A stretch of DNA of 63,266 bases, filler included, from Lophium mytilinum (Eukaryota), in NCBI GenBank assembly GCA_010093605.1. It is 14 parts of 4 records of this genome, joined end to end, with 100 filler letters (N's around TTAATTAATTAA, not from the genome) between each part and the next. Parts side by side here need not be neighbours in the genome. Positions count along the whole stretch, not along the records: positions 17,454 to 29,730 come from MU004189.1; 13 more parts are not named here. One strand, written 5' to 3'. Shown one piece after another: positions 6,013 through 47,672 of this stretch. A program made the translations under genes and the position numbers. The stretch's first letter is position 1. Each line of letters begins with the position of its first letter. The notes below the pieces were generated by a model. That model had not been told where the DNA came from. It made no database searches and saw only the letters and a program-made list of their open reading frames with translations.

Positions 6013-6013
6013 T

Positions 6014-6023: not shown

Positions 6024-6376
6024 CCCTCCTAGCTTCTAGAAGTAATAGAAGTAACCCCTAGAAAATTTTCTATAATAGAGTGCGCTCTTATAATAAGCTG
6101 TAGTATACTTATACCTTTAAATATAGTAACTATTAGTAGAGTTGCGGACCCCTAATAAAGACTATACTAATATAGTATTCTATTAGCAGCGCCGCGGGCC
6201 TCTAATAAAGCGATCTAACTATTATACGCAACATTAGATAATAGACCTTATAACTATAGTAGTACTTATAAGCCCCTATAATAGAGGGATAGTAATAGCA
6301 CTCTAGAAAGTTCTTACTAATTATATTAATTACTTTAATAGCTCTATAACTTCTTTTTCTATTTTACTATTACGCA

Positions 6377-6600
6377 TAGAGACTAACGCCCGGAAAGCTT
6401 AGTATTAGTAATAGCGTATACACGCGCCTAGTATTACTAATTAATTACTATTACTATATAGAGACTAACGCCCGGAAAGCTTAGTATTAATAACGGCTAG
6501 CCTATATGCACGCTTAGTATTATAGAATAAATATCTATAGACTACCTATTTTCTATATACTACCTATTTTCTATATACTACCCGTTTTATAAATAGACTA
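6377..6600 (+). repeat. 5' leader repeats of element A (82-bp-period duplication and 18-bp unit x3)
   Basis: TAGAGACTAACGCCCGGAAAGCTTAGTATTA at 6377 and 6459; ACTACCTATTTTCTATAT repeated from 6541. Confidence 0.85.
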
Positions 6601-6798
6601 CCTAATATTATTATTTACTATAACTCCCTAGGTAGTCCCGCGGCTATACGCAACTAGCACTACCCTCTTAAACCTTCCACGCGTCTAAGAACGCGTAGTA
6701 AATAATCTAAATTTAATAGGCCCTCGCATATAAATTTAACACCTTACTTCTTTAAGTTTTCTTTCTTCTATACTAACCTTTTTTCTCTACCTTCTTAT

Positions 6799-12400: not shown

Positions 12401-13721
12401 CTAGCCGTGCAATTAGATAAAGCACGCCCGTAACGCAAAATAAGGCTTTCTTAAACCCCTTTCTATTTCTAAATAATATTAGATAGATCTTACTATTAAT
12501 TTTATCGGCCCCCTACTAATTTACTTATAATTTAGACAAGACTACTAATATATTATAGTAGTTGTTAATAGACTCTCTAAGATATAGAAGTTTATTCTAA
12601 TAGTTACAATAAACGCTAAGAAAGTAGCCTAGGCCTTTCTTAAATAGATATGGCGCACTAAAGAATACCTATAGTCTATTATTTCTAACTAAGAAGTATA
12701 GTTTATCTTAACTTTCTAGTCTTACCTATATAAACGCGTTAGAATAAAACTAAAACTCTCTACTACTTTCTATCTAGAAATAGATAGTTAAATAGAAATT
12801 ACTAATATAGGCCTAAAGCAGTACCTTTATGCATATATTAACTACTAATAAGATAACTAGGTTAACTTTCTTACTATTACTAAATTTAAAGCTAACTTAT
12901 TAAAGAATACCTCTACTAGAGTAGCGCCCTTTATAGCTACTAAAGGCTATATTCCTAGTGCGGGCACCGCGCTAGCCGCGTAATTACCTAAGAACACGAA
13001 TATAAACGCACTAATAGTTTATCTTATAAAACTTGCGGATAAATTTATTAATAGAATAGATAAGTTGCGCGCGTTCCTCTATATAGAAATTAAATGGGCC
13101 TAAGCTAAGTAAAAGAAATATACTAATGTAGAATAACGCCTAGCTTATATATATTACCTAGGTAATTAAGTTATACTTAATAGATAATTTATTAAAATAA
13201 ACCGCCTAAATAAGAAACTTAACTTTAAAAAGCTAGGCCCCTTTAAGATCCTTAAAAGCTATAAAAATAGTAGTGCCTATAAACTTAACTTACCTAAAGG
13301 CATAGAGAATTTACACCCGGTATTCTATCCTTAGCTTCTTTATCTAGCTAACGCCGTTTCTATAAAAGAATAACGTAATTCTAAGCCTCTACCTATTTAA
13401 ACTACGCCTATATACTAGAAAGGGAACGCTAAGAAAGTTATTAATTACTGCCTAGATAGAAGACGCCTTAACCTAAGTACTAGTAAGAGAGGCATGCTAT
13501 AATATAAGATTAAGTTTATTAGATAGAATAATAAACCCTAATAGAATAACTATAATTACGCTAATAGTTATCTATACCTTATAGTAGACTTCTACTACTA
13601 ATACCTAAAGAAACTAGGTTCTTATTTCTTATTTAGACTACTATTAGACTAGAAGCTAACTTTAGCTACTATTCTTGCTGCTATAGACCTCCGCATAACT
13701 AACGCTGCAGAAGCTATGTAA
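9426..13721 (+). pseudogene. pol: pol of element A (protease, RT, RNase H, integrase, chromodomain), -1 frame to gag
   Basis: Protease D-S-(G) at 9651; PF(G)L(C)NA(P)ATF ~10860; YL(DD)ILIFS ~10947; Y(Q)IY(D)KELL ~11520; (D)FIGPL ~12500; F(HP)E(T)D(GQ) ~12770; GPFKI ~13235; chromodomain-like L(Q)YKIKF..(W) ~13500. Confidence 0.95.
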
Positions 13722-13910
13722 TTTAATTACTAGACCGGCGGTTAAATTAATTTATTAAGGAGGCCTAACCGCGGACGTGCGCAATAATTATATAATATAA
13801 TAGCGCAGATTATTATAAGCACCTAGTAGTAGAATAGTAGCTATAAAGGCTATACGGCTTCTTATAGCCCTATTATAGCTAGCCCTAGTTTAAATAAATA
13901 AGGCTACTCT

Positions 13911-14085
13911 TAGTAAGACTGCGCATAGTAAGACTATATATAGTAATACTACGCATAATAATACTATATATATAATACTACGTATAGTAACACTATATAT
14001 AGTAATACTACTATACTAAAATAGTAAGGCTATAGTAGGCTGTATAAAAATAGAAAGGCTGCAGTAGGCTATATAAAAATAGAAA
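13911..14085 (+). repeat. 3' UTR tandem repeats of element A (15-bp unit x~7; 29-bp unit x2)
   Basis: TAGTAAGACTGCGCA-like units from 13911; AAGGCT(A/G)(T/C)AGTAGGCT(G/A)TATAAAAATAGA twice at about 14026-14083. Confidence 0.8.
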
Positions 14086-14240
14086 AAATAAGTAATCCTT
14101 TATAAATTAATTTATTTTCTTTATTTACTTACGGCTAAAACACAACTTAGCACTTTATTTAATAGATATTTAAGCGGGTACGGATACTCTAGTATAGAAA
14201 GAACTCTCTCTTATAAAAGCTTTAATTAGGGGGCTTCTTT

Positions 14241-14252
14241 AGAGGGGGGAGA
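14241..14252 (+). promoter_or_regulatory. Polypurine tract of element A
   Basis: AGAGGGGGGAGA two bases upstream of the 3' LTR. Confidence 0.85.
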
Positions 14253-14254
14253 CG

Positions 14255-14454
14255 TATTATAGCTATATAATTACGCATAACACGTAACTAGAGGTTACGT
14301 AATAGAGGCTCTACAGAACGGGTAAACGTTGCTCCGCCCTTTAGGTTATTATAACGCCCGTTCTAGAAACCTCTTTCTTTCTTATATTTATCTTTTATTA
14401 ATATTAATACTATTTAATCTAATAATTCTAACGTTCCAACCTTAAGCCCTAATA
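14255..14454 (+). repeat. 3' LTR of element A
   Basis: 200-bp direct repeat of 5813-6012, followed by TSD TTCTA. Confidence 0.95.
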
Positions 14455-16206
14455 TTCTAGAAGTAATAGAATTATATAGTTATATTTTATAGGCTATATC
14501 TCTAGAATATATATAGATTAATAATATTTAGATTTACCTATTATAGTATACTATAAGGCTAACCCTTAAGTATAGCTTAAAATTAGTAGAGGTAGATTAA
14601 AAGTAAATAAGAAAGATAATAGGGCGATACTTAGATATTTAAAGGACTAATTAACTACTATATAGTACTTATATTCTACTAGGTAATTTAGCTATTAAAT
14701 ATATATTTAGATAAAAGCCTCTTAATATAACTAATATTTTACTAGATATAATAGTACTTAGTTCTAATCTAATTATTAGCCTAATATTATACCGGCCTTA
14801 ACTCTAACTCTTTAGAAGGTAGCTACTACTATAGTAACTTACGCCTTTTATAATAATAGCTAATATACTACTAGCGCATATTAGACTAAAGCTTTAAACT
14901 CTTTTAATAACCTACTTACTATTAAATTACAGCCTCTTTTTTAACCCTAACTATTTTATTTAGAATATAAGCGTATCTACCTATATTAATACTAACTAAC
15001 TATTTAAATATATTAGGCCTAATAGTAATATATAGTCTAGAATAGTAAAGGCTAATATACTTTAAATAGAAACTAAGTAGTAAGTCTAGCTTATATATAG
15101 TAGTACCTAGACTTAATAGACTAATCTATATATAGAGAGGTTACTACTAAGCTCTTCTTTTAACTCNNNNNNNNNNNNNNNNNNNNNNNNNNNNNNNNNN
15201 NNNNNNNNNNTTAATTAATTAANNNNNNNNNNNNNNNNNNNNNNNNNNNNNNNNNNNNNNNNNNNNCCCTACTACTATAATAGAGTAAATAGTAGTCTAC
15301 TAGAATAAACTAGTAGACCTTACTATTACTATCTATATTAATAGCTATATAGACTACTTTAAAGCGCTATATACTATATATAGTAGAAATAACCTAAAGA
15401 AAGCTACTATATTTTTCTAGCACCCTTAAAAAGATATTACTAACTTTAAGGTTAAATATAATATACTTATCTAGTCTATATATAAGTATTTACTATATCT
15501 AGTTTTAAGTTAAGAATTAGATAATATAAAGGGCGGCTAGTCTAATAAGCTAGAGATAAAAACTATACTAGAGGTAGTAAAGAAGGCCTATAGAAATAGC
15601 TTTAAAAGCTTCTTTATTAAGAATTAGGCCTATATAAGTCTATCTACTACTTCTCTATCTATATTTACTAACTATTTACTAGTATAAGAAGCTTATAGTA
15701 CCTGCGGTTCTAGATAAGAGTAGCTTTAAATACTCTAGAGGTAAAGAAGGTATAGTAGTATAGCTATATAAAAGCTATAGACTCTAAGTTAATATATCTA
15801 TAAATATACTTAATATTACTAGTAGCGTAGCACTAATTATATATATAAGCTATACTTTAATACCTACTCTACTAAGTATATTCTAATCTATAATTATTAA
15901 TATAGATATTAGAAAGACCTTCTACTACTACTAAGACCTAAAATATACGCCGCTACTATATATAAGAAGATTATATATTTACTAATCTATATTTAGTTCT
16001 CTTACTAATACATGCCTACTTTATTAACTCTAAAGATAGTTCTATATTTAAAGTTAGTCTTATAAACCTAATATTATTCTACTTAAATTACGCTACTTTA
16101 GGTAAGGCTATTAGCTGCTATATAGCTATATATAGAGAGAAAGGAAAGAAAGATAACTATAACCTTTAACTAGAAGTCTAAATTTATACTAAGTATATTC
16201 TTATAG

Positions 16207-17353: not shown

Positions 17354-17609
17354 NNNNNNNNNNNNNNNNNNNNNNNNNNNNNNNNNNNNNNNNNNNNTTA
17401 ATTAATTAANNNNNNNNNNNNNNNNNNNNNNNNNNNNNNNNNNNNNNNNNNNNAAGAGAAAGAATTAATAATTATAACTAATTACTACTTATTATAATAC
17501 CTATAAACTACTAAGAAAGCCTTACTAAGGCTTACTTAATAGATTAAGAATTTCTAGTAGTATAACCCTATAATATAGTATTACTTAAAAGCCCTTATAA
17601 TAGTGCTAG

Positions 17610-17795
17610 TATAAGAAATACAGCTATTAAGTACGTGCACGTCTCTAGCGTGTATATACCGGCTAGCACATGCGCACCCTATATAGTTTTATTATATAGA
17701 GCCTTATACTTAATACGCTTTATAATATAAACTTATCTTTAATAACTTAATGCGCCCGTGCCCTATATCTATACCGCACGCTCGCGTCCCTTATA
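17610..17795 (+). repeat. 5' LTR of element B
   Basis: TATAAG...GTCCCTTATA; direct repeat of 28478-28663, which still ends in intact CCCTTACA. Confidence 0.95.
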
Positions 17796-17797
17796 AT

Positions 17798-17805
17798 TAG
17801 TAGCC
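17798..17805 (+). promoter_or_regulatory. Possible tRNA-type primer-binding site of element B
   Basis: TAGTAGCC 2 nt after the LTR; reverting TA to TG gives TGGTAGC, as in tRNA-Met-primed elements. Short and RIP-altered. Confidence 0.35.
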
Positions 17806-17937
17806 AATTAGGCCAATTTAACTTCTCTAGCGACGGACGCCCCCATTTTCCTCTTTCTAATACTCTTATCCGCAATAACTAGATACTTATCTTAGTTGCT
17901 TTTCTAACGTCGACGTACTCTATACTAACGCCCGACC

Positions 17938-17966
17938 TTTCTCTCTCTCTTTCTCTCTCTCTCTCT
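17938..17966 (+). repeat. (CT)n microsatellite in the element B leader
   Basis: TTTCTCTCTCTCTTTCTCTCTCTCTCTCT. Confidence 0.8.
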
Positions 17967-18251
17967 AGTCTTTTCCTTTCTCTCCTATATAGAAGTTATA
18001 GACGTAAAGACGTTCTTATACTTATAACGCTATTATTAGCGACACTGCAAGTTACTTCTATATCTAACGGCAGCAGCATCGCTTATAGTAGAGCGGCTAC
18101 TATTAAATCTTAGTTAAAAGCGTAGAGCTATTAGCAACCGGGTTAGAATAGTAAGAGATAATAATATATTAATAAAATACTATCTCCTACTTACCCTTCT
18201 ATACCTACTTATCTACCTCTATCCTGCACTACTATAATATCTGCCTTATAG

Positions 18252-20940
18252 ATAGCTATAAATTATTAGCTGGCTATAACCTTAGGTAAATTAAGTACTA
18301 ATACCGGGCCCGACCTCCGGGTAATTCCGTCAACCCCGCACGTATAACCCCCTATTTTAGAGCGCGCTCTAGAAAGGCCTATTCTATAGCTAACTACAGG
18401 TCTATAGTACGCCTCGACCGGCATAAGATATAATTAACTATATTCCTATATCTAAAGTATAGTTATCTACGCCTAAGAAACTATAACTATATAGTTATAG
18501 CTAATTAGAATAGCTCTAACCCTATATAATAGTAAAAGACGTAGCTATATATATAGCTAGATTATTCTAATATAGCTATATACGTTACTATACTATTCTA
18601 ATATATAAATTAGTAATATAGCAGCTTTTAAAGCCTAGTAAGACGCCTCTATACTTAAGAATCTACCTAGAATAGCCCTTTAAAATATATACTATATTAT
18701 TATATAGAGGTAAGGTCTCTAACCTTCTCCCCTAGATAATAATCTTATAGACATCCTCGCCTAGATTATTAAGAAATATCTACCTACTTAAAAGGACCTT
18801 AAGCTTTCCCTAGACTAGAATATAGATAAGAATAGCATTTAAAACGCATTTCTTCTTAATATACTTAAAGCTATCTATACGCTTCTAGGCCTAAGTAATA
18901 CCTTTAATAATAACTAGAATAAGAGCAGCCTACTAACCGCTAATAGAATTAAGATTATTGCGCGGTATATTACTCTAGCTAAATTAGAACGTAAAGGAAA
19001 GGCACCCCAGCAAGACGCTACAGGCGCGGGCGTCGCGAAGGCCGGGAAAAGAAGGCCTAGGCGCTAGCTGTTAGCAACCCTAGCGGCCGGTAATAGTATT
19101 AAATATTATACTAAGAAGTAGTATAAGACTAATACTATCTTTATACGCTAGCTTCTATATAGCTAAGAATTCTACCCGATACTAGAGAGAGATTACGGAT
19201 ATAATAGCCGGTTAAGCTCGCGGCCTAGAGAAAATTATAATAAATTTAGAAAGGGCCAATTACATTAATAACTTACGTGCTATTTTTAACCCTATGTTAC
19301 CGGAATTCTTATTTCCTAATAATAAGATTACCGTTGCAAATATTAAATAAGTCGCAGCCCGTTTTAAGCAAGGACCGGGGGATAATAATAGCGGCGGCTT
19401 AGGCTTAAGTAACGACGACAAAAATAATAATAATAATGCCCCGAACACTAGCATTAGAAGGTCTACCTCTCTAATAGAAGATAGCGTATAATAAAGAATA
19501 GAGAATTACTTCTTTAGGGATAGCTCTAATCTAAATAAATATAACGCCTGTATATTCTAAGGATTTCTAGAATATATAGAAGGAATAGAGTAAATAGTCT
19601 AAGGCCTTCGCAAGTAGCTATAGCCCCGGCAGGCACCTATGCAGTAGATGACCGCGCAGTAGATAACCGCGTAGTAGTTATCCGCGCTAAGGGCACCCGT
19701 GCAGTAGGCGCCCGCATATTGCAGGCCGGAGTATATATAGAGTAGTTTTTTATAACCTAATTCTATAGGCCTATATTTTAATACTTAAACGCCTATATAG
19801 TTATTAGAATACCTCTATACTTTATATCTATATTAGAGTTATTACCTATAGTTAGTAGAAGGCGGATTAGTAGCTATAGTATAGTAGTATAGTCTTCCAG
19901 GTCGGAACTTTATAATAGCAACGCTACTAATATTACTACCTAAGCTTAGGCTAGTAGATATTATACTATTTAATTCTAATAAGAACTTAGTTAGTATCTT
20001 TATATAGCGCTTTAAGTAAATCGCGGCGCTATATAAAGATATACCTATTCTTTTATAGCTACCCTTATATATAATAGTAGATGCCCGTATCTAGTATATA
20101 TTATTGCCGCAAGCGGCGCAACTCTAGATAGATATAAGCTTAGCTTACTAGAAGGATTAGCTAACATAAGAGTACTAGAAAGCGCGCCACGTAGCCTAGT
20201 AGAAAGCTAATAATATAAAGTTCTCCTTCTAAAAGGCTAACTAGCTATCCCTATTCTAGTATATAATTAGAAAGGTTAATCTACTCTATAAAGCCGGTAT
20301 TAAGAATAAGTATAATATTATCTATAAGCTCTAGAATAGCCTAGACCCGGTCCTAATAAACTTAGTATAGATATATAAAGTAGGAGACACGTTATAGAAC
20401 TTCTAGTAACGCGTAAAGTAGTAGATGCCGGCGGCGGAGAAACTATAGTAGTAAAGTTACCTAAGGTATTTAATAAGTTTAGCGCTAACACCGGCGTATA
20501 AACTATACTTATTCTAGCGTAAAGCTATACTAAAGACGCCGTATTACTAACTAATAGAATAGCTTAGATAGGTGCTTATATAGGTTAGCAAGAAGTATAG
20601 AGATATAGCCGCCGGCAATAGAAGTAACTAGAAATAATAAGATAAACCTGCTAATAGGAAACTAGATAAATAGTACCCTATCTATGCGGCTAAAGAAAAA
20701 CTAAATAAGATGCATTTTATACATCTTTACCCCTACTACCTCCCGGCAGTAGAGTATAAGAAGAAAGTTGCAAAAGCCTATAATACCGCCGCAAGATTAG
20801 ATAATATTAAAAACGAAGACCTAGACGTCGCCATTAAGAATAAATATAAGGATAACAGCGATAGCGACAGCTTCTCCTAGATAATTAATAACCTTAAATT
20901 CCTTCTCCAGTCCTCGGAAAATAAGAACGCAAGATGTTAA
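18252..20940 (+). pseudogene. gag: gag of element B (RIP-disrupted; frame change near 19200-19265)
   Basis: Protein-like frames with RIP stops; Gln-rich 15-bp repeats at about 19630-19715; (C)PI(C)-x9-H-x4-(C) knuckle at about 20674-20730; stop TAA at 20938-20940. Confidence 0.7.
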
Positions 20941-23900
20941 CGCCGGGTTACGTCTTAATTATAGTGTTAAAATCCCCGGGCAATACCGTAACATCTTTAT
21001 TAATATATAATATCGCCGTTAAATACTATAAAGTTAGTTTAATAAAGTATATATAACCTGGGGAAAAATTCCTATAATATATTACTATATTAATTAACGC
21101 TATAATACTAGTAGGCAGGTAAGCCTATTTTAGCCTAGACTCGGGCAGTATTATTATGCTTATTAGTAATATATAGAGAAAATAATATTATCTAGACGCA
21201 GTAGTATTTAAAAGAAAGAAAAGTATTAAGATATTAAATATTAGTAAAAAACTAGTATGCTTATAGATATAGGCGTAATTTATATTACACCTTACTAATA
21301 CTAATAGAACTATTCTAGCCGTGCCTATTAAAGCCTATATTATTCTAAAGCTAGACTATAGTCTACTTCTAGAAATTAATAATTTACGGCCGGCAGGCCT
21401 TAGTATTATATAGGAAGATAAAGACAGCCTAGATAGACTTTAGGCGCAGTAATGCATGTTTCTACTAACTATCTTAGCTAAGAACCTGCCGCCTAAGATA
21501 AAACTACTAAAGGTAAAAGTATCTAGAGCCTTTCTTACTAGAGACGTTATTATAGAACTAGAATAAGGCCTTAATATCCCTATCTATAGTGTAAGTAGAG
21601 TTATAGGCCTATATTTATTTAAACCCTATATAGACTTTATTAATAAATATAAAGATATCTATAGCCTTAGGGTAAGAGCATTACTTCTAACTATAGATAG
21701 TAGTATACTATTTTCTAACTTTAGCACGCATGCGCTTATTCTTAAGAAAGAATAATAGCTAGAATACGTCTAGCTATATCGCAACAACGCTTCTATAGGA
21801 GACCTAAACGCAGGCGTGGACTTTATTAACGTTTTTAAAACTAGCGTTAAAGGTAATACGGGAAGCAGCAATACAAATGTATTAGACGCCGCCCCTAAGA
21901 ACGCTAATGTATTAGACGCCGACGTATCTAACGCCGCCGCCCAGGATGTAGACGTCTAGAACGCTGACGTCTAGAACGCCGGCTTAGGGAAAGAAGAAGC
22001 TATTAAGGAAGATACTAGTAAGAACGCCGCCGGCGCACCTATATAAGCTCTTAACGCTACTATAGATAAAGATAATAATAAAGGGGATATACCCTTTATT
22101 ATAAACCCTGTAGAGGGTAATATAGATCTCTTTAAAGCCTATATCTTAAACTATTTTAGGTAGGACTTTAGTAATAAGCTACACGCGCAGCTCTATAATT
22201 ACGCTAAACTCTTTAATAAATATCTAGGCCTTTTTAATAATAGTATAGAAATACCTATTCTATTTATAGATAAGACGGATATTAAGGGCTTAAAGTAAAG
22301 AGCCTATAGACTCTTAGAGCGGGATAAGCGCGCTATAGATAAGGTTCTAGATCCGCTTATAGAGTAAGGGCGCGTTAAAAAGGTTCCGCTAGGGTAACCT
22401 TTAGCAGCCGTATTACTAGCATTTATAGTCTAGAGAAATGGCAAACCGAGGGTTATTATTAATCTTAGGAAGATTAATATAAAACTATATCTAGATGCCT
22501 ACCCGCTACTATAGTAAGATAATATCTTTAATCTTTTAGGCGGCGCAGTTATCTTCTTATCTATAGATATAACTAAAGGCTTCTTCTAGTAGAGCATAAA
22601 GAAAGCTAATTACTAGAAGATAGGCTTTATAACTATATATAGAGGGTATAAATAGCTTATAGTCTCTATAATAGGCCTAGTAAATACGCCCGGCTTCTTT
22701 TAATACTATATAGAATCTCTATTTATACTATACCTATAGAAATTTATAGCCGTCTATATTAATAACGTTCTTATCTACTCTAGATTTAAAGAAGACTATC
22801 TATATTACCTTAATAAAGTTATAAATACTCTAAAAATAGCCGGCGTTACCCTTGCGCTAGCTAAATACTTCTTTAGATTCTCTAGCCTAGAAATACTAGG
22901 CTATTATGTATCTAGGCTAGGCCTTAGCACGTTAGATAAAAAGACGGAGGTAATTAAGAATATAAGGTTTCTAAAGACGCTCTATAAGCTTAAATCCGGG
23001 CTAGCCTTCTTTAGATAGTACCGCTAATATATTAAAAGATATAGCTACGTTATCGCGCCCTTATAAAAGCTAAAACTAGATAGCCTTAAGAATAGTCCTT
23101 AAAAAGGCCGCGCGCGAAAAAACTATATAACTGCGTAGAAGATTACTAATCCCCTAAAGGAGTACCTAGACGCCTAGAAAGTAGTAAAAGCAACGCTTTA
23201 TAGTAAGCTAGTGCTAGCCCTGCTAGACTATCTTAAACTATTTATTATCTACATTAATAGCTCTAAGAAGTATAGCTATAGATGCGCTATATATTAAATT
23301 AGATCTAACGGGATTAAATAGCTAGTTCTTTTTATTAGCTAATTACTAAAAAAGCATAAGCAAAATTACTAGGCCACGGAGTTAGAAGTAGGCGCCCTAG
23401 TTTAGGCGTTGCAGAAACTCTAATACTATCTAGACGGTAATAACTTTACTATATACGTAGACTATAAAGCCTTAAAATTGGCCTTATAAATAGGTAGTAA
23501 AAATAGGCAGTTAGCGCGCCTAAGAAAATAGGAGCTATATCTATCTATATTCCTGCTGCAGATAATAATTATCTATAAGCTAGAGAAATACTATAAGAAT
23601 GTAGATAGGCTTTTATAAATACCTACTATCTATAATAATATTATAGCTAAGGGCGTAGTAGACACCGCCGCCGCTAGCCTCGCTACTATAGTTATACGTA
23701 TTAAGGACACTTATAAGAAATAAATCTGCTTAAAGCTAAAGAAGAATAAAACCTTTAAAGTCGTCCTAGAACACCTTAGAATAAGAGTAAAATAAGGCAA
23801 TAAGACCCACTATTATAGGTTTTTCTTAGACAACAGCCTCTTATACCTAAAAGGCAGTAGTAATAAGTAATATCTATACTTACTAAGTAGCATAGTAGAT

Positions 23901-25160
23901 AACGCCGTTAAAAAGGCGCATAATAAAAGCGGCTATAATAGCGCTAACTAAGCCTACTATTATTTTAGGCATAAGATCTATACACCTAAACTATATTAGA
24001 AGATTAATAAATAGATACTAGCATGCCCAGCATATAAGACCTTAAAACTAAAAAATTAAAAGCCCTATAGATAGCTCTAGCTGGTATAGACACTAGATAG
24101 GCCTTTTATAACTCTTATAATTAACTTTATAGTAGTACTGCCCTCGTCTACTAATAGTAATAACGTAATTATAATAACTACTAATAAGTTCTCTAAGGCT
24201 ATACGCCTACTGCTAGAAAAGAAGATAGACACGGCCGAGACGTAGGCGCATTGCTTCTTTAATTAGATCTACTGTAATTAGGGCCTGCTAGAAGCAATTA
24301 TTAGCGACAGGGACCTAAAATTTATAAGCACCTTTTAGATAGAGCTATTTAGACGGTGCAAGGTAGACCTTTAGATAATAATATTATACTATCTATCTAT
24401 AGATAGGCAGGTAGAGAGAACTAACTAAATAGTAGAAATAACCTTATACTATCTGCTTATAGAATAGTATAAAATATAGTAGTAGAAGCTTCTACCGCAG
24501 GTAGAATATACTCTTAATATAGTAGTTAACGCCTTTAGCGGGTACATGCTATATAAGATTATATATAGTCTTATACTAAAAATATTCTATAGCACTAATA
24601 TAGATAATATCTCTATTCTAAGGGATAGAAAGGCACTATACTTTAATATAGTTAATACTCTTAAACTAGCCTAAGCTAAGATAGCAGCGTACTATAATAA
24701 GAACTATACGCCCCCGGACTTAAAAGATTCTATCTACCTTAAGGTTATTAGGGGCGTCTATTATAGCTATAGGCTCCCGGATAGTAGCTTACTATTACTA
24801 ATTTAAGTGGGCCTATTTAAGATTATAAAGCGTATTAGCCGCTTAGCCTATAAGCTTAAACTCCCTAAGAAATATAGATAAATCTACCCGGTTATTAGTG
24901 TCGCCTACCTAGAATAGGCGACCCTAGATTCTTTCTATAGGGAGCTTCTACCTCCGCAACTAATTATTATAGACGGCCACGATAAATACGTTATAGAGAA
25001 GATTATTAGGCGCAGAACTATAGAGGAAGGGGACGTCTATAATATTAAATAGAAAGGGTATAATAATAAGAAGGATATTATAGCGGAGCCAGTTAAATAA
25101 CTGCAGAAGAACGTTCTATAGATAGTGGAGAAGTTTAAGGCCTGCAGGCGCTCTTATTAG
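20916..25160 (+). pseudogene. pol: pol of element B (protease, dUTPase-like spacer, RT, RNase H, integrase, chromodomain), -1 frame to gag
   Basis: DSGS at 21138; PRV(V)I(D)LRKIN ~22446; DAYPL(P) ~22494; YI(DD)VLIYS ~22755; NY(W)ATELE ~23364; IISDRD(P)KF ~24297; G(P)FK ~24810; chromodomain YVIEKII...(V)K(W)KGY ~24985-25060. Confidence 0.95.
21870..21989 (+). repeat. 15-bp coding tandem repeat in B pol (D-A-D-V-x-like pentapeptide, ~8 units)
   Basis: In the pol frame: NTNVL DAAPK NANVL DADVS NAAAQ DVDV* NADV* NAGLG. Confidence 0.8.
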
Positions 25161-25287
25161 TAACGTAATTATAGTATTTTTAGTATTCTTAGCATTTATA
25201 GTAAAATATAGTTCCAGCATTACTAAGCTAAAAAGGCGGTAAATTACTAAAACTATAGATATTAAACCTACTATCTATAACTTTACT

Positions 25288-28200
25288 ATAATAAACTCTT
25301 TCTCTATAACGCAACTCTCTAATAATATTCGCTACAGCGCCACTATTATAGAGCTAAAATTCTAGCGCCCGGGCAATAGAGATAGCACTATCCTAGACAA
25401 CGTTGCGGAACGCCGGCGAAGCCACCCTAGTAAACCTATCCCGCTAGCTAAATATAACTTTGCGCTATATCTATTCTACTATCTAATTAACTAAATGTAT
25501 TTACCCCTATTATAAGTGCTGCTTGCAGACTAGTATATTAGAAAACTCCTAGCCTTACTTACCGCCGGCGATATTTCCCTCTATAAGCTTTATACTAACT
25601 AGCTAGCTACTTTTACTAAGGAAGGCAAGGTATTACTTATAAGAGAGCTAATAGGCCCACCTAGTGTAGAAGCTAACGGCAGGGTTTATATTACCTATAG
25701 TAAGGTTATTCTTCTTAGTGCCTATAGTATATAGAGGGGCCTTACCTATAAGATACTTAAGCTAATACTAGTATAAATAAAGGTTATTATTACACCCTCT
25801 AAGATAGTTATAGACTATCTTCTAGAGCTAGAATTAGTTATATACTTAGATCTAAATTACGCTAAGAATATTACTATTATAGCGCCTCTACTAGGTAATA
25901 TCTAACTAGAGTATAAGGTATACCTAGCGGGCGGCGCGTAGAATTATAACCTACGCACAGCGGCTGGCATTAATATTAGCGGCAACAACGTTAGCCAGCC
26001 GCATAATAGAGACGAGGGCCCTAAAGAAGCGGACGCTAAAGCTAAAGGCGTTAAAAGCTATAACCTCCCTAATAAAGTTAACCTAGCCGCTAATAGAAGC
26101 GCTAAAGAGAAGCTACCTCCCCCATTAGATAAAGTAGCTCTAGCTAAAGCGGAGAAACGCCGCCATAATAAATAATTTAAAGAAACGGGCTAAGTTCTAG
26201 ATAATGCGGGCAACCTAGATATATTTACTATGGAAATAGTAGAGAGAAGAGTAAAAGAGGCAGAGCTAGAAGCGCAGCTATTACTAACTCTATCCGGGCA
26301 GCCCCGATATAGGACGAACGCCTAGTAGGTAAAGCTCTAGGCGGTAGTTAATATACTGCTCGCACCCTTAATAATAGTGTCGCTTATACCCTTAATAATA
26401 GCGTCGCTCGCACCCTTAATAATAGCGTTACTTAAGACTAGAATTATCCCCTATACTCCCGCGCCTAGGCCGCCGCCGGAATTATTAGATATAATAGATG
26501 TAATAGGGGATTACGCAAAAGTATAGAAGCTTAATAGGGAGATAGATACTACTATTACGGCGCTTAAAGGCCGGGAAGAAGTTAATAGTAATAATAGCGC
26601 CGGCATAGTAAATATTACTAACTTAATTAACTTACCTAATAATATTATTCTAGAGTAAGGAAGCCGGTAGCGTATATATAAAAACGCGCCTACCCTAATT
26701 AGTAAAATAGTATATAGCACTAATAACGTCTTATACGCCTATAAATATAATAAATAATAGTAGAACGTAGTTTATAATAACTAGCAAGCTATAGTAGCTA
26801 CGGGCAAGTACGCCACGTTTACATATATAGTACTTAGAGAGGAGATAAAGATAAGAGATAAAGAGTACCTAAATACTCTAGACCGCAACACTTTTTCGGG
26901 AATATTAAAGCAGTAATTCTACTTTAAGTAGGACTAGAAGACTAAAGAGGAGAAAGGAAATAATATTAAACTTAGCGCGGTAATTAATAGAATTATTAAG
27001 TATAAGACTATTATTAACGCCTTTAATAGTAAATAGGCGCGCCTACTAGCTAAATAATATATTCTATTTTACTATTCTATCTAGGGCCTTAGATATAGCT
27101 ACTAGAAATATAAGGCCTAAACGGAAAGCTATAAGAACACTATTAAATCTCTTCGCGCAGAATTATATAAGATGCGCGTAGAGCTAGCAATAATAAAATA
27201 AGTGGCGAGAAAGACGTTCTTATCTATTATAGCTCTAGCGTAGACAACCCCCGCTAAAGCCTAGCCTATAGTAACGCAGCTAACCCCAGCGACGCTATTA
27301 TTAAAGCGAGCTGCAGTAATACTAGCGGGAACGGCGGCGTGTACTATCCACACTTAATCTAACTATAAGGAAGCCGCATAGTAATTAATAAAGACGTATA
27401 TAAGCCCTATCTAGAAGTAATTATTATAAACGCTATAGACGGCGGTAAACCTAGTAGTAATAGTAGATCTAAAGCTCTAATATAAGCTATAAATCTATAA
27501 TAAGTAGATATAGCTTCTATAAGATACTATAGGCACGCACGTAGGCTACTATAATATAGTGCATCTTAAGATAAGTTAGGCGGTGCAGGCGAGAGTAAAT
27601 AACCTCTATAGCTATAGGCGCGCTAGCAGTAACATAGCTATAGGCGCCGGTAGACTTAATATTATTACTATTAAGAACGCTATAGTAGATGCTATAGTTA
27701 GATTAATTACTAAGGTATACCTATATCTACTACTAGACTTCTTTTACTTTACTAAAGACTAATATACTACTACTTCTATATAAGGTATAGAGCTTATAGA
27801 CGCTAATACTATACTATAGACGCCGCTAAAGAGAAAAGGGAAGCCCCTACTAGTAATTCTTACAGCACTGGATAGATAGATTTATCTCTTACTAATAAAT
27901 AATAGCACCCGGTAAGCAAGTATACGCGCTGTAAAGGCAGTACCTATATCTATATTAGTAACTACTAAGATACCTATAGTATTCTTAGCGCTAATACCCT
28001 CTATACTATAAGCTAGCACGCTAACACTATTAAAGCCTGCTAAAGCTACTACGGCGCTAACGCCCTCTACACTATAAGCTAGCACGCTAACGCCGTTAAA
28101 ACCTACTAAAGCCACCGCGGCAACGCTACTAAAGATAATGCCGCCGGCTATAAGTATAAGAGGCACGGTAATGCTGCAACTAAAGTAAGATATGCCTACA

Positions 28201-28350
28201 CCCTTGCTAGCTAATATTAGACGCCGGTAGGCCCTTAAAGCTATAAATAAGAAGTGTAGAGCTATAGGCATCGCTAGTAATATTCTTAAGAAGCTAAAGC
28301 TAAGCTAATTGCCCCGGCTTAACCGCCTAGAGCTAGTTACTAAGGCTTAA
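25288..28350 (+). pseudogene. Extra ~1020-codon ORF3 of unknown function inside element B
   Basis: One + frame reads protein-like with RIP-type stops from about 25288 to TAA at 28348-28350. Contains a coiled-coil-like stretch (~27105-27200) and in-frame 24-bp x3 (26356-26427) and 66-bp x2 (27988-28119) repeats. Confidence 0.8.
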
Positions 28351-28477
28351 TTACTCTCTAATATATATATTCTTAATATACACATTCTATATATATACTT
28401 ATCTTAGTCTCTCTTTTTCTTCCCCTAGAAGCGGGTAGCATAGTTACTAAGATAGTAACTTCCTCTACGGGGGCTTC

Positions 28478-28663
28478 TATAAGGAATACAGCTATTAAGT
28501 ATATATACGTCTCTAGCGTGCACGTGCTAGCTAGCACGTGCGCACCCTATATAGTTTTATTATATAGAGCCTTATACTTAACACGCTTTATAATATAAAC
28601 TTATCTTTAATAACTTAATGCGCCTATACCCCGTGCCTATACTGCACGCTTACGTCCCTTACA
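28478..28663 (+). repeat. 3' LTR of element B
   Basis: 186-bp repeat of 17610-17795, followed by TSD GCTAG. Confidence 0.95.
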
Positions 28664-29730
28664 GCTAGATATAATTAGTAGGCGCCCTAATTTTACCTAA
28701 GAATACCTTATAGCCCTCTCTAAGTATAAAGATTCTAATATAGAGTATATTAAAGATTTAAAGAAGTTTCTTATAATAGGCCTTAAGCCTACTCTCTCTA
28801 AATAGCTATTAGAGGCTAAATTAAAATAATACTAGCTTTACTACTAAAGAATCTATCTATCTCTATATTAGAACTTTATAATTCTAAAAGAAGAACTATA
28901 CTATTACTTCTATAAACCTAATAGTAATCTAGATCTATATACTCTTAAGAATACTATACTATATATTATACCTTTCTATTATTAATAGGTCCTTAATAGG
29001 ACCTACTAGCTAGGCTACTTTATATACTATAGTATATAGAAGGCCCTATAAGTATATAGCTAGTAGCTAATAATAAGTTATAATACTAATAAATATACTT
29101 ATAAGTATACCTTATACTAGCTAGTATAGAAGGGAAAGATTATTTATAAACTAATATTTTATTAGGTTAAAGATTAAGATCTATTTAATAAATAGGGTAT
29201 TAATTTAATTAGTAGATTACTATAATTAATCTATAGGAATTACTAGATTATTACTACTATTAATTACGCTATAGGTTAGCCTAAAGCTGCAGCGCTTTTT
29301 AATACTTAAGCTAAAACTATAGTAATATTTATCTATAAAAGAATCTACTACTAGTATAGACCTCTAGTAGCGTTTACTTTTAATAATAGTTTAAACTTTT
29401 TTTCTAAAGTTATTATAGTACTATAAAAGCTTATTAAGACTTACTATAATATTATAATACTATATTACTCTTAGGCGAATAGTAAAATAGAGAGGCTTAA
29501 TAGAGTCTTAGAAAATATCCTTATAAAGCTAATAATTAATTAAGATATAGCTATATAGAATACCTAGTTACTAGCTATAGTATATATAATATATACCTAG
29601 AATACCTTCTATAGCTATACTCCCTACTACCTTATATATAGTAGACGTCCTTAAGTACCTAATAATACTTTAGTACTAGCTCTTAATAAGACTGCAGATA
29701 AAGAAGCTAAATTAGAGTATTATTTAGCCT
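28664..29730 (+). pseudogene. pol: Element C pol fragment (RNase H end to integrase core)
   Basis: (W)GI(D)LI(G)RL(P)...(D)YA(T)G(W)P(E)A at about 29190-29290; (SD)N(G)xNF ~29380; Y(HPQ)AN(G)KIERLN ~29465. Confidence 0.9.
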
Positions 29731-36416: not shown

Positions 36417-39400
36417 ATACTTTATTTCTAGTTAAATTTAGTTAGCCCTATATAGAAACTTATAGATTATAAGTAATTATTATAGATTATATTAAATTAT
36501 AAGCTAGTATATAGTACTTATTATTCTTTAATAGCACGCAATATATTCTAATAGAGGGCGGGCTATTTTATTAGCCTAGAATCTTAATATATTTACGCGT
36601 TAAAGACTATAGCTTACTTTTTTAAACCGCGACTCTAAAGCCTATATATAATTATTTCTATTATTTCTATATTCTTTATAGCTAGTATAAATCTTTATAG
36701 TAGGTATAGTTTTAAGCGCGTACTAGTAGTTATATCTAGTTTTCCTAGTTCTAATAGCACGGCGTATATTAAAAGTAAGTATTACCTCTTACTAATTTCT
36801 AGTATCTAACTTTCTACTATAGTTACTAGCTATAGTAAAGAACTCTTAACTCTAGGTAAGTACTATCTAGGTAATATAAAAGAAGATACTAAGTCTAAGC
36901 GCGTTACTTTCTTCTATAAGGCGAGCGCTAGGCAGTAATATATTACTAGTCTAGTAGAATAGAGTTAATAGGCATCTACTAAGAATGCTAGCGTTATTAA
37001 AAAGATAGCTGCTAGGGTAAGTACTAGTTATAGAATAGCTATAAGATAGTAATATTAGATGCGCATTAAGTAGCCTAGGTTAAACTCCGCGTCTCTCTTA
37101 GCCGGCGTAAAATTAAATAATAGCTAGGAGGCGCTAGTTAGGTAGAGAGTTTTATAATATTACTAATTTAGCCGCTTAAGCCTCTTATATATAGTAGAAT
37201 TAGCGGTATATATATTAGTAATAACTACGCTTAATAAGAATAAGGTAGATAGAGAGTAGATAACTTATAAGAACTAGTAAGTAGTAAGGGTAGAGAACTA
37301 TCTTCTTATAGATTATAAGAGTACTTAAGTCTTCCTTTAATAGTCTATACCGCGCCGTTAGAAGTAGATTAAGTTCTTTAGCTACTTTTATAATAATACT
37401 CTAGTAAAACTCTAGGCCCTATTCTATACTAGGTTNNNNNNNNNNNNNNNNNNNNNNNNNNNNNNNNNNNNNNNNNNNNTTAATTAATTAANNNNNNNNN
37501 NNNNNNNNNNNNNNNNNNNNNNNNNNNNNNNNNNNGTTGCGTTAGTATTATATCTAATTATCCGGCCTTTAAATAAGGGTGGTAGATATTCTTCTAGAAT
37601 CTTAAGAACCTTAAGGGTGCCCTTAATAGTAAGGTTATAGTAGTACTTAAGCTTATTTATAGAGGCTACCTTTTATAGTTTATATATATCTAGATTAAAA
37701 TAATAAGAGTAAGTATACTATTATATACCTAGTATATTAGTAGGTAGACTAGGGCGTATCTAAGTAGAGATCCTAAATTAGCACTTAATTATAACTTACT
37801 TTAGTAGCTTTTAGTTTTATAGCGCCTTAGTAAGCTTTACTATATAGGTAGTATTAGGCATAGTTATTAAAATAATAGTAAGGGCGTAGGTATCTATTAC
37901 CTCTATTTAGCCTTTTAAGATTAGAATATTTACTATAGAATTAAGTTAGTATTTAGCATATCTCTAGTACTTTTAAAGGTTACTATATTTATCTTTAAAG
38001 GTTACTATAGATTTAGACCTATTAGTAGACTATATTATAGTTATTTAAGTAGTAAGTATTTTCTTAAGTTCTACTCCCTATAGTTTATTTAATTTATTTC
38101 TTATAACTAAGATTTTGCGTATACTATATAGAAGATTAAAGAATTAGTTAGTGCCCTTAGAGTAGAGTTAGAAGAAGGGCTTAGTAGTAACCTCTCTATA
38201 TATAGATTAGTTTATTAAGTCTAGGTACTACTGCGCATAAGCTAGACTTACTACTTAGTCTCTATCTAAAGTATATTAGCCTTTACTATTCTAGACTATA
38301 TATTACTATTAGGCCTAATATATTTAAATAGTTAGTTAGTATTAGTATAGGTAGATACGCTTATATTTTAAATAAAATAGTTAGAGTTAGAAGAGAGGCT
38401 ATAATTTAATAGTAAGTAGGTTATTAAAAGAGTTTAGGGCTTTAGTCTAATATGCGCTAGTAGTATATTAGCTATTATTATAGAAAGTATAAGTTACTAT
38501 AGTAGTAGCTATCTTCTAGAGGGTTAGAGTTAAGGCTAGTATAATATTAGGCTAATAATTAAATTAGAACTAAGTACTATTACGTCTAGTAAGATATTAG
38601 TTATATTAAAAGGCTTTTATCTAAACGCGCATCTAATAGCTAAATTATCTAGTAGAATATAGGTACTATATAGTAGTTAATTAGTTCCCTAAATATCTAA
38701 GTATTACCCTATTATCTTTCTTATCTACTTTTAACCTACCTCTACTAATTTTAAGCTATACTTAAGGGTTAGCCTTATAGTATACTATAATAAGTAAACC
38801 TAAGTATTACTAACCTATATATATTTTAAAGGTGTAGCCTATAAAATATAACTATATAATTCTACTACTTCTAGAAAGGCTAAATCTATAAAAAGAAGCG
38901 CACTAACCTAGTTATTAGAGCGCAAGCTGTAAGAGATAGAGAGAGAGCGGAAACTACTAAGTAGAGCCTCTAGAAAGCGCCGCCTAGAGTAGTAGAGAGC
39001 TATAAGAGAGAGAAATATATAGGCTAGTTAAATATAGACTATAGTTAGCCTAGCGCTAGTAGGGGTAAATAAGTAGATAAGAAGTATAATAAATATATAG
39101 ATAGATAACGCTAGTCTTTTTAGGTAGATTAAAGTAGGTGTTCTCTATATAGAGGCGGTGTGCGCGCTAGTAAAGAGGCTAGAGGGCGAGGGTACTTATT
39201 TAGTAAGAAAGAAAGTAGGTAAGTAAGCTATTTTATAGTATAAGCTAAATTAGTAATACTTATAAAAAGAGTAGATAGTAAGAAGATATATAAATTAGTG
39301 CTACTATCTACTAGCTTATAGGGCGTAACTTTAGTAGATAATAAGCTACTATTAGAGGTAGAGAGGCGTATAGTAGCTTAGGTAATAATAAGTAGTATAG

Positions 39401-40060
39401 TACCTTCTTAGGTAGCTATAGCTAACTTCTCTTTCTATTCTAAGAATCTTAACTTATTAGCTGCTAATTTAGTAGAGCTTATAACGCTAATTTAAATAAT
39501 AGAGGGGGGCACCTATATATAGAAATTAGCCTTTCTTTCTATATTAACTAACCTAGGTAAGTAGAAGGTAATATTAGATAGAAGTTATTACTAATCTATT
39601 AAGTATTACTAAAAGCTAATAGGTATAGATAAATATTAAGGTAGAGGCTAATTATTACTAATTATTAGGTAGTAGAGTTTTTTAAGCTATATAACTCTTT
39701 ACTTCTATTATATTATAATATAGCCTATTTACTAATTACGCACTTAATTATATACTACTTTAAACTTTACCTTCTATCTAGCCTTTTAATTCTAATTCTT
39801 ATCTACTATTCTTACCTATCTTTTCTTTTTTATTCTTCTTCTCCTCTATCTCTCTCTTCCCTCTCTCTCTTTTTCTTCTCCTCTTTTTCTTATATACTAA
39901 CTTTCTTCTCTATACCTTAGGCTTACCTATACTTACTATATTTCTAGTACCGCTCTATAAGTACTTCTTTAATAGATATTATACCTATTTAAAAGTATAA
40001 CTAAAANNNNNNNNNNATCTACCTTTCTTATACCCTAACTTCTTATTTTATTTACCTAAT

Positions 40061-41762
40061 ATAGCTAAAGAATTAGGTTAATGCACTAGTTACTAATAAC
40101 GCCTTCCTAATAATTAAAATAATAAGGAGTTTAACCCGGATAAATAGTTATTAAGTATAGACTCTAGTTAAGTAGACTATAATAGTAATTTAGAGCTAGA
40201 TAAGCTAGATAACTACTATAGCTGCTAGCCTCCCTATAGTAGCTGCTAATACTCTAGACCTACTTAGAGAAAGGCTATAATACTTCTAGTAGACCTACTA
40301 TATAATATATCTATATAGAGTAAGGTAGTATTTAATTTTACTAAGAACTCTAAAGGCTACTTAAGTTAAATAAATATTATAGCTAGCTTAGGTCTAGCTT
40401 CTAAGGTATAGCACTAAATAGAAGCTAACTTATTTATACTAATAGAGAACTCTAAAGTATATTTATAGGTAAAATATCTCTTATAACTAGGCTAAAATAA
40501 CTATAGTAAGAATAACGCCTACTTAAATATTTAGTTTAAAATATATATACTTTTTATAGATATATAGAGTTATATATTTAAGAAGTCTTTTATATTAGCT
40601 AAATAGAAGTAAGTATATTAGATATTAATCTAGTATAAAGTCTATAAGAAATATAAAATATAGAGTAGTATTATTAAAAGTAATAAGAAGTAGAAGTAGT
40701 TTAAGTTAGCCTTATCTATAAAGTTAGTTATATTAGTAGGCCTTAGCTCTCTAATAAAATCCTTAAATATTACTACCTAAAATACTCTATTTAAGCTCTA
40801 GCTATTATATATAGTCCTTGCTATAATATACTAGCTACTATAGTAGAAAAGTACTAGACGCCTTTTTACTCTTTATCTTATAAGGTCTAGTAGTAAAGGC
40901 CTAGAGCTAGAAGACTATAGCTTTATAAAGTTTCTAGAAGCTATTAATAGAACTTTTATAGACTTTAACCCTCTAAAGTATATTATTATAGTTAATAGAA
41001 CCTAGAAGTTAATAGAGAATAACTTTTATCTAACTATACTATTAGAGGAAATAAAAAGTATACCTAAAGAGATAGTACTTAGTTTTATAGTAAAGGGCCT
41101 TAATATTAAAAAGGTAATATCTAAACTTAAGACTAGATATATATTAATTATTATTAATTATTAAATATTACTACTAACTAATATATAGCTAGGTCTATAC
41201 TTTCTTAAGTTTCCGCCTTCTAGTATCCGCCCGGCTAAGAAACGCCCCCGCTATAGTAAGCCTAAGGCTGCTGCGGCTAAGGGTCTATCTAAACCTACCG
41301 CTGCTAATACTCTAAATAAAATAATTATTAACTTAACTATAAGTCTAGATATATATATAGCTAATATAGATAGAATTAATTCTATAGTAGAGTAGAATAA
41401 AGGAAAGAAGTAGAAATAGCTAGTAGATATAGTAAAAAAAGAGAAAGAAAAAAAAAAGAAAGAGCTAGTAGAAATAGTAAAAGTAGAAAAAGAAAAGAAA
41501 GAGAAAGAAAAGAAGAAGAAAGAGTTAGTAGAGAAAGAGCTAGTAGAGAAAGCGCTAGTAGAGAAAGCGCTAGCAGAAATAGTAAAAGTAGAAAAAGAAA
41601 AAAAAAAGAAAGAGATAAAGAAGAAAGAAATAAAAGAGAGAGAGCTAGTAGATATAGTAATAGCAGAGAAGGCTAAGAAGTAGATAGAATAGAAGAAGAG
41701 AGAGCTAGCTAAAACTATAACTAAAGAGAAAGTAAAGAGGTAGAAATAGCTAGAAAAGATAG
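40061..41762 (+). pseudogene. SNF2-family ATPase gene relic, 5' part (copy 2)
   Basis: Collinear with 57544 to about 59245. Confidence 0.85.
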
Positions 41763-46200: not shown

Positions 46201-47672
46201 TAAGGTACGGCTGGACAGCTAAAATAATATAGTATTACTATCTTAGAATATTCTAGTAGTATATTCTCTTTTACTTATTAAGTTCTATATATTTATTATT
46301 AGTTAGTAGGCGTTAAAGTTAAGAAAGCTAGGCGCGTTACTATATTAATTAGTTTTAAGGCAGCATATTTTTACTTCTTTACTATTTATAGTTATACGCG
46401 TTAGCTATATATATATTAATATATACTATAGATAGGGTATATAGTATAGTATATTTAAGTTATATAGTAAGTTTCTATTTAGAGTAGAGAGAGATAGTTC
46501 TATATTACCTTTTACTATATTTAAGTAGATAATATTAAGCCTTACTAAATAATAAATAGGGGGCGTATAGTAAAAGAATATTCTATTTCTTAAGGTAGAG
46601 TATAAAAATAATAACTATAAAGGGAAGTAAAGTAGATTATAATTAAGTAGTATAAAGAGAAGAAAATAAAAGAGAAGTAAGTTGCGCATTTATTATAATA
46701 GAATATAATAGAGCTAGCTAGATATAGTCTATATATATTAACTTAGCATCTTTAGCTAGTTATATACCTCTTCTCTATCCCCCCCTTAATAAAGCCCTAT
46801 TATTCTATATAATTAAATACTTCTATCTATATAATTACCTCTTCTATTATATTACCTTAGACTAGAGCTTATATTTATATACTTATATTAACTTCTACTA
46901 ATTACTATACATGCGCTACTACCTCCCGCTATTATTTCTAGATAGTATCTCCTACGCTATTAAAATAGTAGTTAGTTAAGAGATTATAGACTTTATATTC
47001 TATATTATTAGATAGATAGCTAGCTAAGTTAAAGGCTCTAATAGAGGTATTAATATTATAATGCGCAGCTATCCTCTTATTACTAACTTTATCTCTAGTT
47101 AGGCAACCTACTTAGCCGTAAATAACTTACTAGCTATCTTCTCTAGCTATAGTATATATCCCTCTTCTATATTATCTATAATAAACGCCTCTATTTTTAC
47201 TAACTAAATTACATAACTTTAAGCTATTATATTCTTCTCTCTTTTAGCCTAAAACACTCTCTTTACTACTATTTAGGCCTTCTTTCTATAATTCTAGCCC
47301 TCTATTAGTTACTACGCTATAAGTAGTTATATACTATATTATAGGGTACTTCTCTATAGTAGAGAGGTCTCTAAATAGAAAAATAGAAAAGTAGTCTACT
47401 AGTAGTAAATTTCCCCCCTATAGAATTTATATACCTAGTTAAAATATTTAGCTATATAGCTATATTTCTAGTTTTAATAATAGCTATAGTTTAGATAACT
47501 CTATACTACCTATATATAGAGATATTAAGCTATTTATATTCTAGTCTAGTAAGATAGTATAAGGTTATAATANNNNNNNNNNNNNNNNNNNNNNNNNNNN
47601 NNNNNNNNNNNNNNNNTTAATTAATTAANNNNNNNNNNNNNNNNNNNNNNNNNNNNNNNNNNNNNNNNNNNN

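Follow-up and report, generated by a model that had tools for sequence, protein, structure and literature searches.

Background

Retrotransposons with long terminal repeats (LTRs) from the Ty3/Gypsy group in fungi are usually described as gag-pol elements with two open reading frames (ORFs) (PMC3248453, PMC2864245). Here, we describe a large third frame, ORF3, in a probable chromodomain Gypsy element of Lophium mytilinum (assembly GCA_010093605.1). The window, by which we mean the whole stretch of DNA analyzed, is 63,266 nucleotides long with its filler; the part that holds the element, positions 17,454 to 29,730, comes from MU004189.1. It is repeat DNA under heavy repeat-induced point mutation (RIP), with a GC content of 21-38% and a composite RIP index of 1.3-2. 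Family B is the Gypsy family of the window element, and C, D, and E are further families of the same genome.

Extra ORFs have been recorded in fungi before. For fungal Gypsy elements, with lengths to >13 kb, the legend to Fig. 3 and section 5 of PMC2864245 record an "add. ORF" whose function is not known; as far as that legend and text describe them, these elements resemble ours in being fungal Ty3/Gypsy with an extra ORF. A preliminary description of the window had stated that typical fungal chromoviruses encode gag and pol only, which stands insofar as two ORFs are usual (PMC3248453) and falls insofar as extra ORFs are in print (PMC2864245; brtn). The gene brtn, of Boty-like (BcGypsy1) elements in Botrytis and Sclerotinia, is cited in PMC8365987 and PMC7264820. 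By these descriptions it is, like ORF3, an extra gene of a fungal Gypsy element that follows pol and precedes the 3' LTR, but it is antisense, whereas ORF3 is a sense frame of ~1000 codons, with relics that are open and have coding GC periodicity on the sense strand.

Outside the fungi, plant Ty3/Gypsy elements carry additional ORFs (aORFs) in sense and antisense, and the sense type, aORF-3S, is called "env-like" in the account of PMC7264820. By that account it agrees with ORF3 in position, orientation, presence in most copies, and lack of a cellular source gene. However, aORF-3S often encodes transmembrane domains, of which none is evident in the un-RIPed parts of ORF3, and it belongs to another kingdom and another reverse transcriptase (RT) lineage. 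Bdelloid rotifer LTR retrotransposons, as outlined in PMC5408684, have a variable ORF3 that may be a GDSL esterase, a DEDDy exonuclease, or env. This recalls the RT clade of families B, C, and D in that the slot is exchangeable and its genes partly non-env, but the rotifer ORF3s are recognizable enzymes or env in an animal host, whereas the window ORF3 matches no family. Gene capture downstream of pol is likewise noted in PMC6431247.

We found no published description of the ORF3 protein family or of a fungal clade with a sense ORF3, in a search to which subscription journals and Repbase entries contributed little. CfT-1 is said to have a third ORF, which we could not confirm in the literature. 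The consulted portions of PMC4210507, PMC13159263, and PMC5576322 do not mention such an ORF. Extra 3' ORFs as a class are, then, already published; what is new is that a clade of fungal chromoviruses has an accessory gene, so far undescribed, that is vertically inherited and probably not env.

A third gene behind pol

ORF3 is a copy, killed by RIP, of a genuine third gene that is separate from pol and lies on the sense strand. The gene belongs to a sub-clade of fungal Gypsy elements, probably with a chromodomain, comprising families B, C, and D.

25288..28350, + strand: ORF3, ~1020 codons, RIP-inactivated, with 55 internal TAA/TAG stops

The distance from the pol stop to the 3' LTR is 3317 bp, and a single sense frame (position mod 3 = 1) runs through it from 25243 to 28350 with zero frameshifts. 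Between 25288 and 28347 this frame has 55 stops in 1020 codons, all of them TAA or TAG and none TGA, compared with 138 and 136 in the other two forward frames. Under a Markov-1 (dinucleotide) null, 104±11 stops are expected per frame, and across 500 simulations no six-frame minimum fell below 69. The first in-frame ATG remaining is at 25495, with none nearer the 5' end, and the true start codon is irrecoverable in this copy, which RIP has rendered dead. The claims that one sense frame of ~1000 codons fills the 3.3 kb before the 3' LTR, and that its stops are of RIP type (55/55), are thereby confirmed.

Relics that escaped RIP fix the strand and the frame. A protein search of the genome gave 12 matches, which include three GC-rich loci with short pieces of ORF3 (L019:1280-1913, L018:1326-1794, and L022:1540-1815), all in gene-rich DNA and each piece <400 bp. 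In the five gap-free blocks (326 codons) that can be compared with the window, the relics have 1 stop in the sense frame versus 5 in the shadow antisense frame, and all five blocks have their lowest GC at codon position 2. Transversions between relics and window number 20/23/44 by codon position (p=0.0007), and of the 286 transitions, 240 lead from the relics to the window as G>A or C>T. Where the window has a stop, the relic has a sense codon in 31 of 31 cases, and in 28 of these it encodes Trp, Gln, or Arg. The relics thus establish that ORF3 is read in the sense direction and in this frame, and that the window stops are products of RIP.

The relics are debris of elements and not a parent gene, because L019 joins its ORF3 piece to an inverted pol fragment and L018 is rearranged, with two distant pieces in opposite orientations. 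They look like fragments of retroelement cDNA captured at repaired breaks, and presumably derive from further sister families that are now missing.

Other copies of the element carry ORF3 as well. A DNA search of the genome returned five matches that represent four family B copies, namely the window and those on contigs C6, C23, and C1. The C6 copy is full length with its own target-site duplication (TSD), and in the C1 copy (L011, G000:C1:3833500-3843000) a 7.9-kb element, bounded by terminal repeats of 167 bp, splits ORF3. All four copies that reach that far have the region, and a fifth B-type locus (C20) ends inside the RT, so no copy lacks it and the statement that ORF3 moved with the element is borne out. 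Internal indels among the copies are all multiples of 3 (five of five: 24, 15, 48, 30, and 24 nt), compared with three of five out of frame in the 5' region. Near its end the frame is less constant: 13 codons before the end of ORF3, at ~28311, two of the other copies lack 1 nt, so that the C-terminal end varies among copies. Compared with the window, the DNA reads show C>T or G>A at the majority of the differences listed.

It had been proposed that a consensus of B copies not open in this frame would speak against the gene. This is not a valid test, as each of the three other copies also has a stop at 49 of the 55 positions where the window has one; it would fail a true gene because RIP struck the same codons throughout.

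Families C and D, in which pol is 48-58% alike to that of B when translated with X, have a stop-poor sense frame of >1000 codons ahead of the 3' LTR. Family C is found on contigs C22 (full length, 11.25 kb), C5, and C17, and family D on C2 and C8 (10.8 kb) and C11 (3' part). The full-length members of the B, C, and D families, with LTR pairs and TSDs, range over 10.8-11.3 kb. When a profile is built with no sequences other than family B and the relics, it recovers two domains in C (68.5 bits) and two in D (22.1 bits), compared with no more than 4.3 bits for 60 shuffles and <0 for reversed sequences. Purine/pyrimidine coding disregards the changes made by RIP. In this coding, the N-terminal domains of the families diverge by 0.19-0.22 at codon position 1, 0.16-0.24 at position 2, and 0.38-0.49 at position 3 (roughly 0.21, 0.21, and 0.44), and the third-position excess is weaker in the central domain. 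Upstream of the N-terminal domain, frames differ by frameshift among the C copies and among the D copies, which brackets the start of the gene and separates it from pol.

An RT tree was made from the RT-RNase H region in purine/pyrimidine coding (356 codons, positions 1 and 2), with 24 of 25 candidates, one being too short, and with the fragment L058 left out. It covers elements of the L. mytilinum genome and two metagenome loci. Families B, C, and D form a single branch with an ultrafast bootstrap (UFBoot) value of 93, which bears out the linkage of ORF3 to one RT clade. Family E and the metagenome loci L059 and L061 adjoin this branch, in an order with low support (39-41), and the remaining elements sit on two long branches.

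Beyond this genome, a profile search of 1.84 billion representatives found two hypothetical proteins, the 383-aa P0003 (E 2.7e-21) and the 106-aa P0004 (E 2.2e-4), each from a single JGI/IMG contig of ~3 kb. P0003 has the N-terminal domain followed by the start of the central domain, in the order seen in ORF3. Word-index searches of longer proteins gave 0 of 37 candidates for relic L019 and 0 of 4565 for P0003, which is weak evidence. When contigs were scanned with a pattern for the N-terminal domain, none of 162 candidate stretches from metagenomes and none of 19 viral ones could be confirmed, and a search for named pol relatives was without result.

Several points weigh against this picture. 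An antisense frame over ORF3 has just 50 stops; it is a shadow frame that shares TA with the sense frame, and its counterpart in pol is low too (87 vs 73). Third-position excess among the B copies is weak in ORF3 (transversions 9/8/15 by codon position) compared with pol (3/3/19). Between families, the third block and the tail have little or no codon-position signal, and the counts come from a protein-guided alignment, which favors positions 1 and 2. The C-terminal 230 codons are without an un-RIPed counterpart, and P0003 and P0004 are known from their own sequences, so that their link to a retrotransposon is only putative. We are highly confident that ORF3 was inherited together with the RT until third positions in the N-terminal domain neared saturation, and that it was under selection at the protein level while evolving faster than pol.

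Layout of the encoded protein

ORF3 is laid out as a folded N-terminal domain, a basic linker, a helical domain with a coiled coil, a third block, and a variable tail.

25381..25752, + strand: conserved N-terminal domain, common to C, D, relic L018, P0003, and P0004
25990..26178, + strand: charged, Lys-rich, low-complexity linker; family C is Lys-rich there too
26358..26428, + strand: 24-bp tandem repeat x3 (8 codons), copy number differing between copies with the frame always kept
26698..27117, + strand: conserved central domain, predicted helical, common to C, D, relic L019, and the end of P0003
27112..27210, + strand: coiled-coil-like heptad segment, longer in family C and present in D
27325..27612, + strand: third helical block, weakly conserved; relics L022 and L018 are open in the ORF3 frame
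27922..28200, + strand: Pro/Thr/Ser/Ala-rich tail; the tails of the families are not homologous

In the un-RIPed relatives, the N-terminal domain has D-W-H and W-[PS]-A-T-F motifs at constant spacing. The coiled-coil-like segment noted earlier is upheld, since its best register places hydrophobic residues at 8 of 9 a/d positions, as is the repetitive Pro/Thr/Ser/Ala-rich C-terminus: these residues make up 46% of the tail against 25% of the whole ORF, and a 66-bp repeat (x1.9) lies at 27988-28112.

The slot behind the chromodomain

The place occupied by ORF3 holds other genes in related elements. An RT-motif scan of metagenomes gave six loci: the RT relatives L058 (fragment), L059 (intact), and L061 (short), and three without an RT match; none of the six has an ORF3 homologue. 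Viral contigs were scanned for the RT as well, with 0 of 71 confirmed in one scan, 0 matches in another, and 0 of 11 confirmed in a third.

L059 (metagenome contig Ga0335072_10000474; 2113-14636, minus strand) is an intact 12.5-kb chromovirus with 148-bp LTRs that are 99% alike, a gag frame of 919 codons, and a pol frame of 1472 codons. It resembles the window element in its close RT, chromodomain (putative in the window element), primer-binding-site-like motif, short LTRs, and large sense ORF3; its RT scores 42% to the RIP-altered window RT, the best of 97 genome matches. However, its ORF3 of 1335 codons encodes three CCHC zinc knuckles (zf-CCHC), a UPF1-like superfamily 1 (SF1) helicase (AAA_11/AAA_12), and a repeat tail, and is unrelated to the window ORF3 (hhalign probability 0.2%). 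A search with P0005, the L059-type helicase ORF3, gave no match to the B, C, and D loci.

Family E (L104 with L105, G000:C18, ~821600-832100; L106 with L107, G000:C11) is 10.5 kb long, with TSD AAAGG and an RT close to those of B, C, and D. It has ~3.5 kb beyond pol that scores <0 with the ORF3 profile and has no Pfam match. A distant Gypsy element (L108 with L109, G000:C21, ~248400-256600; 8.2 kb, 54% GC, little RIP) has no extra 3' region. As a separate observation, this element has long G runs at both ends, and contig C21 holds many lightly RIP-affected RTs.

The slot behind the chromodomain is thus exchangeable in the wider RT clade, and ORF3 is fixed in one sub-clade.

What might ORF3 do?

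No family, solved-structure, or fold match points to a function, which counts against any specific proposal. Pfam gave no match for P0001, for 11 A3 members, for P0003 and P0004, or for the C, D, and E frames; a NET2A_C match of one A3 member was rejected at E 0.054. PHROGs had nothing below E 0.11, and PDB contained no sequence that the A3 profile matched at E 10. None of the 20 genome matches to PF05721 (PhyH) overlaps ORF3 of B, C, or D, although RIP-altered sequence would escape that profile. AlphaFold models are of low confidence (mean predicted local distance difference test, or pLDDT, 40.6 and 39.1) and suggest that the N-terminal domain mixes helices with strands and that the center is all helical. 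A Foldseek search of PDB and BFVD with the first model was empty at E 0.001, and its best VIA-align Z was 3.8; at a pLDDT of ~40 this absence is uninformative on fold.

Three other similarities emerged. The N-terminal domain scores 0.88 to DUF8286 in the Atlas, which is a lead only. The central relic scores 0.97 to fragments of phage portal proteins in the Atlas, but the recognition value of 1559 is below the 2300 mark and PHROGs has no portal match, so we treat it as noise. A reading of the D-W-H motif as that of a metallophosphoesterase was set aside, as P0003 shows none of the remaining motifs of such enzymes and has no Pfam match.

We consider it quite likely that the product is a soluble intracellular protein and not an envelope. 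The further proposal, on which we are evenly divided, is that it would form a soluble coiled-coil oligomer that serves the element, probably by binding its nucleic acid or chromatin, and that blunts silencing or decay. The protein would be made from its own start or from a spliced or subgenomic RNA, would oligomerize through the coiled coil, and would bind the RNA, cDNA, or chromatin of the element; once bound, it might shield the element against host silencing or decay. An anti-silencing factor was among the functions first suggested. The neighboring clade has a nucleic-acid-acting enzyme, the UPF1-like helicase with zinc knuckles, in the same slot. We infer the counter-defense step from the basic linker, the anatomy, and an analogy with this helicase, which is itself unrelated to ORF3.

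A broader form of the proposal, which we hold only tentatively and think rather doubtful, is that the slot exchanges different large genes (the ORF3 family, the UPF1-like helicase, and the family E region) and that ORF3 would be a suppressor, with a new fold, of fungal genome defense by RNA silencing, decay, or RIP-linked heterochromatin.

Alternative explanations

ORF3 could instead help in structure or transport, as a soluble scaffold with a coiled coil. Such a scaffold would become part of the virus-like particle, or move it from one nucleus or hyphal compartment to another, and so fill the role of env without a membrane. The env position, the size, the all-helical center with its coiled coil, and the lack of a recognized enzyme motif would all suit such a protein, and movement or chaperone roles are among those proposed for plant sense aORFs in the account of PMC7264820. 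We think it unlikely, as close RT relatives have unrelated genes in the slot and the distant C21 element has none, so that no fixed structural need is apparent.

Fungal mobile DNA also hosts the Spok genes, and ORF3 might be a selfish fitness gene of a toxin-antidote or meiotic-drive-like kind that favors nuclei or spores with the element. A large, multidomain, coiled-coil protein on a mobile element that evolves fast yet under selection is what one might expect of such a gene. The un-RIPed pieces, however, match no nuclease, kinase, or other enzyme family, and we regard this explanation as improbable.

An envelope-like membrane fusion glycoprotein is suggested by the sense orientation, by the place between pol and the 3' LTR, and by the RIP-altered translation of ORF3, in which 54 windows exceed a hydropathy of 1.6, with a maximum of 2.82. 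However, RIP inflates apparent hydrophobicity, since pol in the same element also has 8 such windows. The strongest stretch overlaps the variable 24-bp repeat and is a gap in C and D, and the hydrophobic windows of the tail are Pro/Thr/Ser/Ala repeats with C at codon position 2 in as many as 13 of 19 codons. P0003, which covers the start of the protein to the central domain, has an acidic N-terminus, and none of its windows exceeds 1.6 (maximum 19-residue hydropathy 0.88); the three relics have none, and P0004 has one marginal window (1.69). The earlier remark that there is no signal peptide or transmembrane segment therefore holds for the part covered by P0003, judged by hydropathy alone, and does not extend to the last 230 codons, for which there is no un-RIPed sequence. 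A membrane anchor may lie within those codons. The envelope explanation as a whole we rate very low; an env-like function, one of those first suggested, is disfavored by the un-RIPed homologue without a hydrophobic segment.

A recently transduced host gene, carried as passive cargo, is largely refuted and retains hardly any probability. The un-RIPed, GC-rich look-alikes L018, L019, and L022 in gene-rich DNA could be taken for its source, but they are <400 bp of rearranged element debris. There is no intact cellular copy among the 12 and 6 matches in the genome, and selection acts across three families, which also disfavors the recent gene capture suggested at the outset.

That ORF3 is no gene, but a composition effect of RIP, an antisense gene, or the tail of pol, is refuted despite the equally stop-poor antisense frame (50 vs 55), as the null never falls below 69 stops, the relics are open in sense with a coding GC pattern, and the pol frame ends at 25158 with ORF3 in a different frame.

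The element and its surroundings

The window element is a Ty3/Gypsy LTR retrotransposon of family B that occupies 17610-28663.

17605..17609, no strand: left TSD GCTAG, matching the right TSD
17610..17795, + strand: 5' LTR, 186 bp
17798..17804, + strand: primer-binding-site-like motif, RIP-altered; the intact relative L059 has TGGTAGC there
18901..20960 (bounds approximate), + strand: gag-like frame; aa 344-501 match the gag of L059 (29%, E 3e-11)
21000..25160 (start approximate), + strand: pol, with TAG stop at 25158-25160
22440-22907, + strand: pol RT (RVT_1)
23169-23543, + strand: pol RNase H (RT_RNaseH)
23898-24041, + strand: pol integrase zinc finger (Integrase_H2C2), weak, E 0.2
24804-24914, + strand: pol Tf2-type SH3 (SH3_Tf2-1)
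~24990-25140, + strand: chromodomain-like end of pol, by alignment to L059; no Pfam Chromo match in the RIP-altered copy
25161..25287, + strand: short spacer between pol and ORF3
28469..28473, + strand: short G run directly before the 3' LTR, weak polypurine-tract candidate
28478..28663, + strand: 3' LTR, 186 bp, ending in CA
28664..28668, no strand: right TSD GCTAG, matching the left TSD

The order RT, RNase H, integrase, as assigned by Pfam, is that of Ty3/Gypsy, and the matched LTRs and TSD described earlier are verified as a 186-bp pair with GCTAG on both flanks. All 24 differences between the two LTRs are transitions, and the 5' LTR of the C6 copy starts with TG. The TGGTAGC of L059 presumably corresponds to the 3' end of initiator tRNA-Met. 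Although Pfam Chromo itself has no match in the RIP-altered pol, the end of pol aligns with the PF00385 domain of L059.

Other repeats share the window. An unrelated Gypsy element of 8.6 kb at 5813-14455 has 201-bp LTRs that are 90% alike, ~4 kb before its RT region, and no ORF3 homologue. Another RIP-affected repeat is present at 1-5812, 37500-41760, 47670-52430, and 55400-61930 in several copies that are 93-99% alike, some of them inverted. It contains charged repeats with a 15-bp period, and its copies are parted by gaps with a TTAATTAATTAA spacer between N runs.

Significance

The relics, together with P0003 and P0004, are natural, unmutated queries for intact members of the family. A 3-kb gene that is under selection in three families, beside relatives that carry an enzyme in the same slot, suggests that these retrotransposons have accessory functions of the retroviral kind. 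If any gene of the slot counters RNA silencing or RIP, the expansion of LTR elements in RIP-competent fungi would become directly testable.

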